From the IMG/VR virus record IMGVR_UViG_2563366974_000010: a stretch of 64,000 nucleotides of DNA; one strand, given 5' to 3'. The translations under genes were made by a program, and so were the position numbers. This document shows, in pieces, positions 62,859 through 63,441 of this stretch. Origin of the DNA: a virus (taxonomy: Duplodnaviria > Heunggongvirae > Uroviricota > Caudoviricetes). A model generated the notes under the pieces. The model was not told the origin of the DNA. It made no database searches and saw only the letters and a program-made list of their open reading frames with translations. Numbering within the stretch: position 1 is the stretch's first letter; the number at the start of each line of letters is the position of its first letter.

Positions 62859-63203
62859 ATGACTCAAAACTATGAACTGATTGTGAAAGGGATCCGCAAT
62901 TTTGAGAATAAAGTTACGGTAACTTTAGCATTACAGGACAAAGAACGCTTTGACGGTGAAATTTTTGACCTGGACATCTCGCTGGACCGTGTTGAAGGTG
63001 CTGCGCTGGAGTTTTATGAGGCAGCGGCCAGAAGGAGCATCAGACAGGTCTTCCTGGATGTCGCTGCCGGGTTATGTGAAGGGGATGAGCAGTCGCCGGA
63101 AAAGCGCCCCGTAATTTTAGAGGCGCAGAATGTATGGATAACCTACAAAGGAAAGCTACCGGGAAGGATTACTGGTTCCCTGAAGACTCCGCCGAAATGG
63201 TAG
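62859..63203 (+). CDS. Hypothetical protein (114 aa) inserted between holin and endolysin
   Basis: GGGGAGAG RBS; no recognisable motif. Confidence 0.45.
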   Translation: MTQNYELIVKGIRNFENKVTVTLALQDKERFDGEIFDLDISLDRVEGAALEFYEAAARRSIRQVFLDVAAGLCEGDEQSPEKRPVILEAQNVWITYKGKLPGRITGSLKTPPKW

Positions 63204-63441
63204 TTTTGCCAGCATAATTTTCTTCCAGCAATGCCGCCAGCCACTTGAAAGAATTTTGTTGTTCCTGGGACCATTTGGGGTTGCGTGATTCAAAATGAAT
63301 GGATGCCAGCGTTGGCAGCATTTGCTCCCTGGGAATTGATAAGGCCAGATGTGAAAATGCAACAGTGAGGGCATTTACATCATCCCGAAGCCTGGAAATG
63401 CAGTCGAGCAACTCCTGTAGAGAAATGGTGCTATTGTCCAT
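63169..63441 (-). CDS. Hypothetical protein (90 aa), convergent with 62859..63203
   Basis: AAGAGGA RBS 8 nt upstream of ATG on minus strand; 3' ends overlap by 35 nt. Confidence 0.45.
   Translation of the reverse strand: MDNSTISLQELLDCISRLRDDVNALTVAFSHLALSIPREQMLPTLASIHFESRNPKWSQEQQNSFKWLAALLEENYAGKTTISAESSGNQ

Follow-up and report, generated by a model that had tools for sequence, protein, structure and literature searches.

Two small convergent genes lie between the holin and lysozyme genes of the tailed-phage record IMGVR_UViG_2563366974_000010 (Caudoviricetes; IMG/VR), of which a stretch of 64,000 nucleotides (nt), hereafter the window, was analysed. They are two independent accessory genes and not one functional unit. 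The plus-strand gene (62859..63203, ATG start, 114 amino acids (aa)) is ydfR, a member of the YdfR family (DUF1327), and the minus-strand gene (63169..63441, ATG start, 90 aa), here referred to as gene X ('Ybl58', phrog_2411), is an antisense moron gene. The two open reading frames (ORFs), the 35 nt shared by their 3' ends (63169..63203), their good ribosome-binding sites, and their position between a pinholin gene and an endolysin gene had been described in an earlier note made from the sequence alone, and all agree with the ORF list and the features identified here, namely Shine-Dalgarno (SD) sequences 7 and 6 nt before the respective ATG codons, a holin gene of the phage 21 (P21) type (62639-62854), and a lysozyme gene from 63547. 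The arrangement is ordinary lambdoid mosaicism, in which a known family, ydfR, is combined with a new, uncharacterised gene of the moron class; it is thus no special two-gene insert, but one named family present in most Escherichia coli and one typical moron. The gene identities, the independence of the genes, the coding selection, the slot polymorphism, and the leader homology described below are held with high confidence. The mechanisms inferred from them are much less certain, and the whole explanation, comprising ydfR, an independent moron X, an incidental overlap, and these mechanisms, is considered probable.

The plus-strand gene matched the Pfam family PF07041 with a score of 148.4 bits (cut-off 25; E-value 6.9e-44) over profile positions 1-92 of 93 and phrog_406 with an E-value of 2.7e-68, 337 homologues were found, and its product is named 'YdfR family protein' by the Prokaryotic Genome Annotation Pipeline (PGAP) in identical genomes; the statement in the earlier note that neither gene shows a recognisable motif is therefore wrong for this gene. 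ydfR starts 4 nt 3' of the holin stop codon and is preceded by the SD sequence GGGGAGAG (62844-62851), 7 nt 5' of its ATG codon. It occupies the same slot as in the cryptic prophage Qin of strain K-12, where essQ, ydfR, and rrrQ follow each other on the same strand, and the order holin-ydfR-lysozyme is also found in phages BP-4795, PhiR55_1, and vB_EcoS-783R2. Of 5426 complete E. coli genomes, 4348 (80%) contain DNA of the ydfR core, with 8603 places in all; E. coli cassettes with this type of holin therefore usually have a further gene before the lysozyme gene, contrary to the premise of the earlier note that the two genes are normally adjacent; in Shiga toxin (Stx) phages of the 933W type, S is followed directly by R with no gene between them. 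Homologous cassettes thus carry ydfR as a conserved gene, a finding that the earlier note had named as one that would speak against its proposal, and ydfR is the usual passenger of the P21-type lysis cassette and a late-operon gene. The conserved core of YdfR (residues 1-72; 62859..63074, plus strand), as delimited by the AlphaFold2 (AF2) model and the alignment with K-12 YdfR, contains three strands (residues 5-14, 18-27, and 33-43) and a helix (50-69) modelled with a predicted local distance difference test (pLDDT) score of about 65-85, and 61 of its 72 residues (85%) are identical to residues 1-72 of K-12 YdfR. The pLDDT falls below 50 over residues 68-114, and the variable C-terminal tail (63075..63203, plus strand), recognised from the pLDDT and from the tails of relatives, ends at a junction after ...LKTPP (~63194).

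Gene X is a genuine protein-coding gene under purifying selection, as indicated by its substitution pattern together with its third-position bias, by distant homologues of the same length and pattern, and by a confident AF2 model. In six alleles, the pairwise dN/dS (ratio of non-synonymous to synonymous substitution rates) was 0.21-0.58, and the summed pN/pS (the corresponding ratio for polymorphisms) was 0.33 in the frame of X vs. 1.1-1.5 in four control frames; a value of 0.28 was obtained for the frame of the complementary strand with the same third positions as X, but this frame contains stop codons. Differences at codon positions 1, 2, and 3 numbered 136, 120, and 347, respectively. X matched phrog_2411 with an E-value of 5.5e-55 and has 61 homologues; it is annotated as 'hypothetical protein' by PGAP and named 'Ybl58' in one UniRef cluster. 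An exhaustive HMMER search of 1.84 billion representatives yielded only 16 X relatives; four full-length relatives (81-97 aa) share 30-38% identity and retain the hydrophobic pattern. The SD sequence of X, AAGAGGA (63454-63448, minus strand), lies 6 nt 5' of its ATG codon. The AF2 model (mean pLDDT 82) contains helices at residues 8-35, 38-52, and 59-77, and, with an isoelectric point of 4.95 and a maximum 19-residue hydropathy of 0.83, the predicted product of X is a soluble, acidic protein of three helices. Hydropathy revealed no membrane segment or signal in either X or YdfR (maximum 19-residue hydropathy of YdfR 0.69, vs. 1.70 in the neighbouring holin). No Pfam family was assigned to X, and when all 17 members of the X family were compared with Pfam, no family was matched by more than one member. 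The anti-silencing protein Mip (46 aa) was considered as a match and rejected, being below threshold in NCBIfam (E-value 0.081; 12.6 bits vs. a cut-off of 50), as was a similarly weak PHROG match (E-value 0.36). A Foldseek comparison of X with viral structures gave nothing at an E-value of 0.001 or lower, and searches of PDB sequences with profiles of the YdfR and X families gave nothing below an E-value of 0.2.

X was found in 1221 of the 5426 complete E. coli genomes (22%), i.e. a clearly selected but uncharacterised gene is present in about one-fifth of them, including BLR(DE3), a derivative of BL21(DE3). In BLR(DE3) (locus L016; NZ_CP020368.1, 1385305-1387204), the order is essD-ydfR-X-rrrQ with an intact lysozyme gene, and this copy is located between sieB/ydaF and trkG, a Rac-like prophage position. 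E. coli SFE8 (locus L018; NZ_CP051219.1, 2334192-2334464) contains an intact, diverged X (76% nucleotide identity) among transposase fragments, adjoining the adhesin/siderophore receptor gene iha. By reading of the sequence, part of the start of the lysozyme gene survives upstream of this copy, which marks it as a relic of a lysis cassette within an island.

The independence of ydfR and X is apparent from the variation of the cassette. Four types were seen, namely S-R, S-ydfR-R, S-ydfR-X-R, and S-ydfR(long)-other gene-R. In a five-way DNA alignment, the insertion/deletion segment that contains X (63195..63486, ~292 base pairs (bp)) was the only difference from the ydfR-only cassettes of BP-4795 and PhiR55_1, so that the variable part carries X alone and not the two genes that the earlier note had taken to be inserted together. 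In PhiR12_5, the place of X is taken by an unrelated 86-aa minus-strand gene (phrog_2572), which was found in 311 E. coli genomes at ≥80% of the query and in 570 with any match. Distant relatives of X are located in antisense between the tail genes M and L (loci L010, L011, and L014), near a terminase gene (L007), and at chromosomal sites (L009 and L015). The late-strand neighbours of X relatives (a 71-aa and a 60-aa protein, ES18 gp24, and HK022 gp22) were considered as YdfR-like proteins and rejected, since they share only a short C-terminal resemblance. The notion of a pair is thus not borne out: ydfR is present in 4348 genomes vs. 1221 for X, and distant X relatives stand beside unrelated neighbours.

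The last 10 residues of X (81-90) have a pLDDT below 50 and are unconserved in the family alignment, and the third-position bias of the X frame is gone within the overlap (15/49/36 at the three codon positions vs. 136/120/347 upstream). Given this lack of order, conservation, and constraint in the tail of X, the 35-nt overlap looks like an incidental by-product of a recombination junction. The X module would have recombined into the last codons of ydfR, with X reading on into the antisense of these codons up to a stop; the overlap would have arisen in this way and has no detectable function of its own. The disordered C-terminal tail of YdfR is likewise a recombination junction. Four or more endings were observed after ...LKTPP (~63194), i.e. 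KW-stop (the window and 783R2), LA-stop (BP-4795), ESQP-stop (PhiR55_1), and an extension of 60-70 residues, which results in forms of 171-183 aa. The 169-aa YdfR of PhiR12_5 has the same extension joined earlier, after about residue 80, and K-12 YdfR has yet another tail that begins soon after residue 72. The 171-183-aa forms continue into a coiled-coil-like extension that overlaps another antisense gene, and two variants (196 and 169 aa) contain an internal tandem duplication of the core; alternative ends or forms are represented by proteins P0089, P0102, P0163, P0175, P0130, and P0152. In addition, the end of the window YdfR, ITGSLKTPPKW (63170-63203), resembles IFGDLKKPPSY, the C-terminus of the unrelated 71-aa late-strand gene in L010 (5261-5300), which converges on an X relative in the tail M-L slot; the DNA identity is only about 63%. 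Judging from the sequences, the mobile unit may include the last codons of its late-strand partner.

The same observations bear on the possibility that the two genes form a coupled convergent module, in which X would tune the expression of YdfR and/or the holin by antisense or collision control and thereby the timing of lysis. No terminator was detected between the genes, so an X transcript would run antisense into ydfR and the holin gene, and the antisense interference suggested in the earlier note would for this reason be physically possible; the gene pairs gp22/gp23 of HK022 and gp24/gp25 of ES18 show the same convergent overlapping layout. However, ydfR without X is about six times as frequent, by places found, X relatives occur beside unrelated neighbours, and the overlapped tail of X is unconstrained. 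Furthermore, the lysozyme gene of the window is already a pseudogene while ydfR and X are intact, which argues that lysis timing is not what keeps them. We therefore regard a coupled module as unlikely.

As a gene independent of ydfR, X is a moron of the classical class, because close relatives either carry or lack it at this position, it points against the late operon, and its leader is shared with annotated morons. For the same reasons, the suggestion of a moron in the earlier note is supported for X only. The leader of X (63442..63546, minus strand), which was recognised by homology to other leaders, abuts the lysozyme start codon of the opposite strand. On the X strand, it contains TATCAGG (63539-63533), a 17-nt spacer, and CCCTGGATATGTT (63515-63503), followed by a hairpin with the stems CCCGGCCTG and CAGGCGGGG (63495-63472) and then by the SD sequence at 63454-63448. 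The predicted RNA fold has a free energy of -25.3 kcal/mol (z -3.9), and compensatory changes were found at six of the seven pairs of the first hairpin across relatives. The general form of the leader is TATCAGG and CCCTGGWTA, separated by about 17 nt and followed by an 8-bp hairpin. Homologous leaders precede gp23 (srb) of HK022, gp25 of ES18, gp65 of HK633, and the 86-aa gene of PhiR12_5, and the same arrangement is present 5' of the distant X relatives in the M-L slot. In BLAST searches, the leader was located in HK022 5' of gp23, annotated as 'srb protein; moron gene product', which lies in antisense between gpI- and gpJ-like genes; in ES18 5' of gp25, annotated as 'possible moron', which lies in antisense between gpM- and gpL-like genes and converges on gp24; and in HK633 5' of gp65, downstream of an Rz-like spanin gene. 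Such a layout, with two small genes of a late operon converging and overlapping, has thus been annotated before. A motif scan of IMG/VR identified 38 loci, one of which (L022) looks like a chance match; the remaining loci have, 3' of the leader, small ORFs (67-99 aa) of about ten different kinds with no assigned function, one of which has a DUF1883 domain. Besides HK022 gp23, ES18 gp25, and HK633 gp65, the leader is found 5' of at least nine types of small ORFs. X is thereby linked to about ten other types of cargo and to the original morons of HK022 and ES18, and the leader provides a handle on how morons are regulated and exchanged.

The complete leader element is ~130 nt in length (L010, 4838-5000; L021-L058; L059 (ES18), 1640-1801; L060 (HK022), 1490-1658; and L061 (HK633), 1250-1421). 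It starts with a terminator-like hairpin on the late strand, followed by ATATCAGG-N17-CCCTGGTTA and by the 8-bp hairpin, which has a GTGGGA loop and compensatory stem changes. Most copies, but not that of the window, contain a second hairpin, AGAGG-GATGGCTGATTA-CCTCT, around an SD sequence and a mini-ORF (MAD...) that begins with ATGGCTGAT. RNAalifold also pairs an invariant UCAGCC with GGCUGA, and no covariation was seen for that pairing. The first part of the leader holds an imperfect inverted repeat, TATC(C)AGG ... CCTGATA, and corresponds to the 55 nt 5' of the lysozyme ATG codon (region 63491-63546), which are kept in every compared cassette that has this intergenic region (Qin has none). 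We found no description of the ~130-nt leader as a unit in the literature, and a comparison of positions 61900-64000 with Rfam gave only snoRNA matches at chance level. A dif/XerCD-like site, a sigma-54 promoter, and an extended -10 promoter were each considered for the leader and rejected, as none of them fits the consensus when judged by eye.

In hhalign comparisons, X matched a mixed cargo profile with a probability of 50% (E-value 1.6e-4), and the single sequences HK022 Srb, HK633 gp65, and ES18 gp25 with E-values of 0.01, 0.048, and 0.0011, respectively; these values are weak and no more than suggestive of protein homology between X and the leader cargos. A literature search on HK022 'srb' gave nothing usable. 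Taken in its widest form, the leader might represent an undescribed cassette system of enterobacterial lambdoid phages, in which one structured regulatory leader would serve many exchangeable, fast-diverging small helical proteins, including X, placed in antisense in the holin-lysozyme, tail M-L, tail I-J, and post-Rz slots, and the cargos would be polymorphic conflict proteins that are on in a particular non-lytic state; this generalisation is doubtful. A shared leader with exchangeable cargos is nevertheless the one result of this analysis that goes beyond the routine.

In the explanation that we propose, the late transcript carries ydfR along with S and R, and X would be one cargo of an exchangeable slot defined by the conserved leader. 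Because X faces the late promoter head-on, it cannot be made from the late mRNA; instead, a non-consensus promoter of its own within the leader would drive X in a lysogen or in the carrier state, when the late operon is silent, and late transcription would collide head-on with X transcription and shut X off. An expression pattern of this kind, on when the late operon is off, is suggested by analogy with known morons and by the orientation of the gene. With regard to its activity, X may bind and block a protein in phage-phage or phage-host conflict, i.e. act in superinfection exclusion or anti-defence, which is put forward tentatively as somewhat short of an even chance; by analogy with Pid of phage P22, it might alternatively modulate a host regulator, a proposal to which we give appreciably less credence.

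The only functional data on YdfR are those of Göpel et al. 2026 (PMC13232886) for the K-12 allele. K-12 YdfR was recovered in a two-hybrid screen and interacts with residues 1-597 of RNase E; Rne(1-598) and DNase-resistant nucleic acid both co-purify with the protein, and a fragment comprising residues 1-72 is enough for the interaction with RNase E (PMC13232886). Overproduced YdfR accumulated visibly and changed few transcripts, and growth arrest was reported for YegJ only (PMC13232886). Given the 61 of 72 identical residues over the interacting K-12 fragment, the YdfR protein of the window would also bind the catalytic N-terminal half of RNase E and/or RNA, and YdfR would then be a late phage protein that touches host RNA decay and not the envelope. 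As ydfR is present in 80% of complete E. coli genomes and has RNase E as a partner, a role in late phage development is testable.

These data also bear on the view that both products are dedicated lysis accessory proteins, e.g. cytoplasmic regulators of the pinholin or of the release of the signal-anchor-release (SAR) endolysin. Nearly all ydfR genes lie between a holin and a lysozyme gene, the Qin copy shares 4 nt (6055-6058) with the start of rrrQ, suggesting translational coupling, and an envelope-integrity screen flagged ydfR, as cited in PMC13232886. Both proteins are, however, soluble with no signal or transmembrane segment, the experimental partner of YdfR is RNase E (PMC13232886), many functional cassettes lack both genes, e.g. 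the 933W-type S-R cassettes, and X relatives occupy tail-gene slots. A dedicated role in lysis is accordingly quite improbable. A toxin-antitoxin or an abortive-infection/defence module, in line with the toxin or regulatory pair suggested in the earlier note, is very improbable: small prophage genes with a convergent overlap bear a loose likeness to type I toxin-antitoxin loci, and the slot holds polymorphic cargo, as is common in conflict loci, but PADLOC assigned neither protein to any family, no toxin or antitoxin domain was found in Pfam or NCBIfam, neither protein is a hydrophobic peptide (maximum 19-residue hydropathy of 0.69 for YdfR and 0.83 for X vs. 1.70 for the holin), growth arrest upon overproduction concerns YegJ and not YdfR (PMC13232886), and the two genes are not obligate partners, ydfR being mostly without X and X relatives occurring without ydfR. 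That the minus-strand ORF is spurious, lying on the complement of non-coding or ydfR-associated DNA, has next to no probability, for although X has no Pfam family, is annotated only as hypothetical, and has no identified promoter, the purifying-selection signal is specific to its frame, homologues at 30-38% identity keep the hydrophobic periodicity in unrelated DNA contexts, and the gene has a strong SD sequence and a confident AF2 model.

Several points weigh against the combination of ydfR and an independent moron X as proposed here. A scan for consensus sigma-70 promoters found none for X in the window and none in the HK022 and ES18 leaders; the X leader contains only weak candidates (TTTATC-17-TATGTT and TTGAAT-19-GACAAT). 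Within ydfR, no terminator was found on the minus strand 3' of X, and a weak 5-bp stem inside the holin gene is the nearest candidate. Of two textbook features of morons, X thus has no detected terminator and, for the promoter, only these weak candidates. The first part of the leader persists 5' of R in cassettes without X; it may serve R or the late transcript, or may have been left behind when a cargo was lost. Neither YdfR nor X gave a specific match in fold searches, nothing was found in the literature on Ybl58 or on the expression of X, and the proposed activity of X rests on context. With regard to YdfR, the allele for which RNase E binding is known, that of K-12, differs in its tail, and few transcripts changed on its overproduction.

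Upstream of ydfR, the holin gene S (62639..62854, plus strand) encodes a class II holin of the phage 21 type (PF04971, E-value 9e-33) with a dual-start MYQM N-terminus and a hydrophobic segment with a 19-residue hydropathy of 1.70, and is named 'class II holin family protein' by PGAP in identical genomes. The holin gene is in turn preceded by a 653-aa ORF (59976-61937) and a DUF826 gene (62294-62563); by position only, the former corresponds to the SASA-family carbohydrate esterase/YjhS gene annotated in related prophages. Downstream, the SAR-type lysozyme gene R (rrrQ-like; 63547..64000, plus strand), which has no obvious SD sequence, is a pseudogene and extends beyond the end of the window. 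Relative to the intact BLR(DE3) rrrQ, it contains one extra G in a run of seven (63704-63710), resulting in a +1 frameshift, and its ORF ends after 80 aa in the ORF list. A prophage of E. coli S88 is 99.6% identical over positions 62602-64000, and there, too, PGAP records 'lysozyme, frameshifted'. The prophage lineage is therefore probably lysis-defective, with ydfR and X still intact. In S88, the gene for the large terminase subunit is likewise frameshifted, and only a truncated DUF1737 fragment is present at the place of the 653-aa ORF, so that the window and S88 differ at this site.

Among known systems, the essQ-ydfR-rrrQ region of Qin (YdfR, P76160) resembles the window in that a gene of the same family lies, on the same strand, between a P21-type holin gene and a lysozyme gene. 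K-12 YdfR has 103 aa, whereas that of the window has 114 aa, and their C-terminal tails are unrelated; in addition, ydfR and rrrQ overlap directly in Qin, and the leader and the antisense gene of the window are missing there. The best-studied functional analogue of X is the pid moron of P22, which encodes an 86-aa soluble protein in the late region, is transcribed in the direction opposite to its neighbours, is not expressed during strict lytic growth or during stable lysogeny, and has a Rho-independent terminator (Cenens et al. 2013, PMC3573128). The target of Pid is the dgo operon, which says nothing direct on X. Homology of X or the cargo profile to Pid was considered and rejected (hhalign E-values of 0.033 and 0.21), and no leader motifs were found at the pid locus. 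The bor gene of phage lambda, an accessory gene expressed from the prophage, likewise adjoins the lysis genes and runs opposite to late transcription. Its product is a lipoprotein of the outer membrane that has a signal sequence, whereas X is predicted to be a cytoplasmic acidic helical protein.

The gene pairs gp22/gp23 of HK022 (NC_002166) and gp24/gp25 of ES18 (AY736146) share with the window a small antisense gene that converges on a late-strand gene and is preceded by a homologous leader; the overlap between HK022 gp22 and gp23 is 81 nt. These pairs are located in tail-gene slots (I-J and M-L, respectively), whereas that of the window is located in the lysis cassette, and they possess clear intrinsic terminators and the second leader hairpin with the mini-ORF, both of which are absent from the window. 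For ydfR, the relevant comparison is with phage proteins that act on RNase E, namely T7 gp0.7, T4 Srd, and phiKZ Dip. If the YdfR protein of the window behaves like its K-12 homologue, it would be another phage-encoded RNase E binder.

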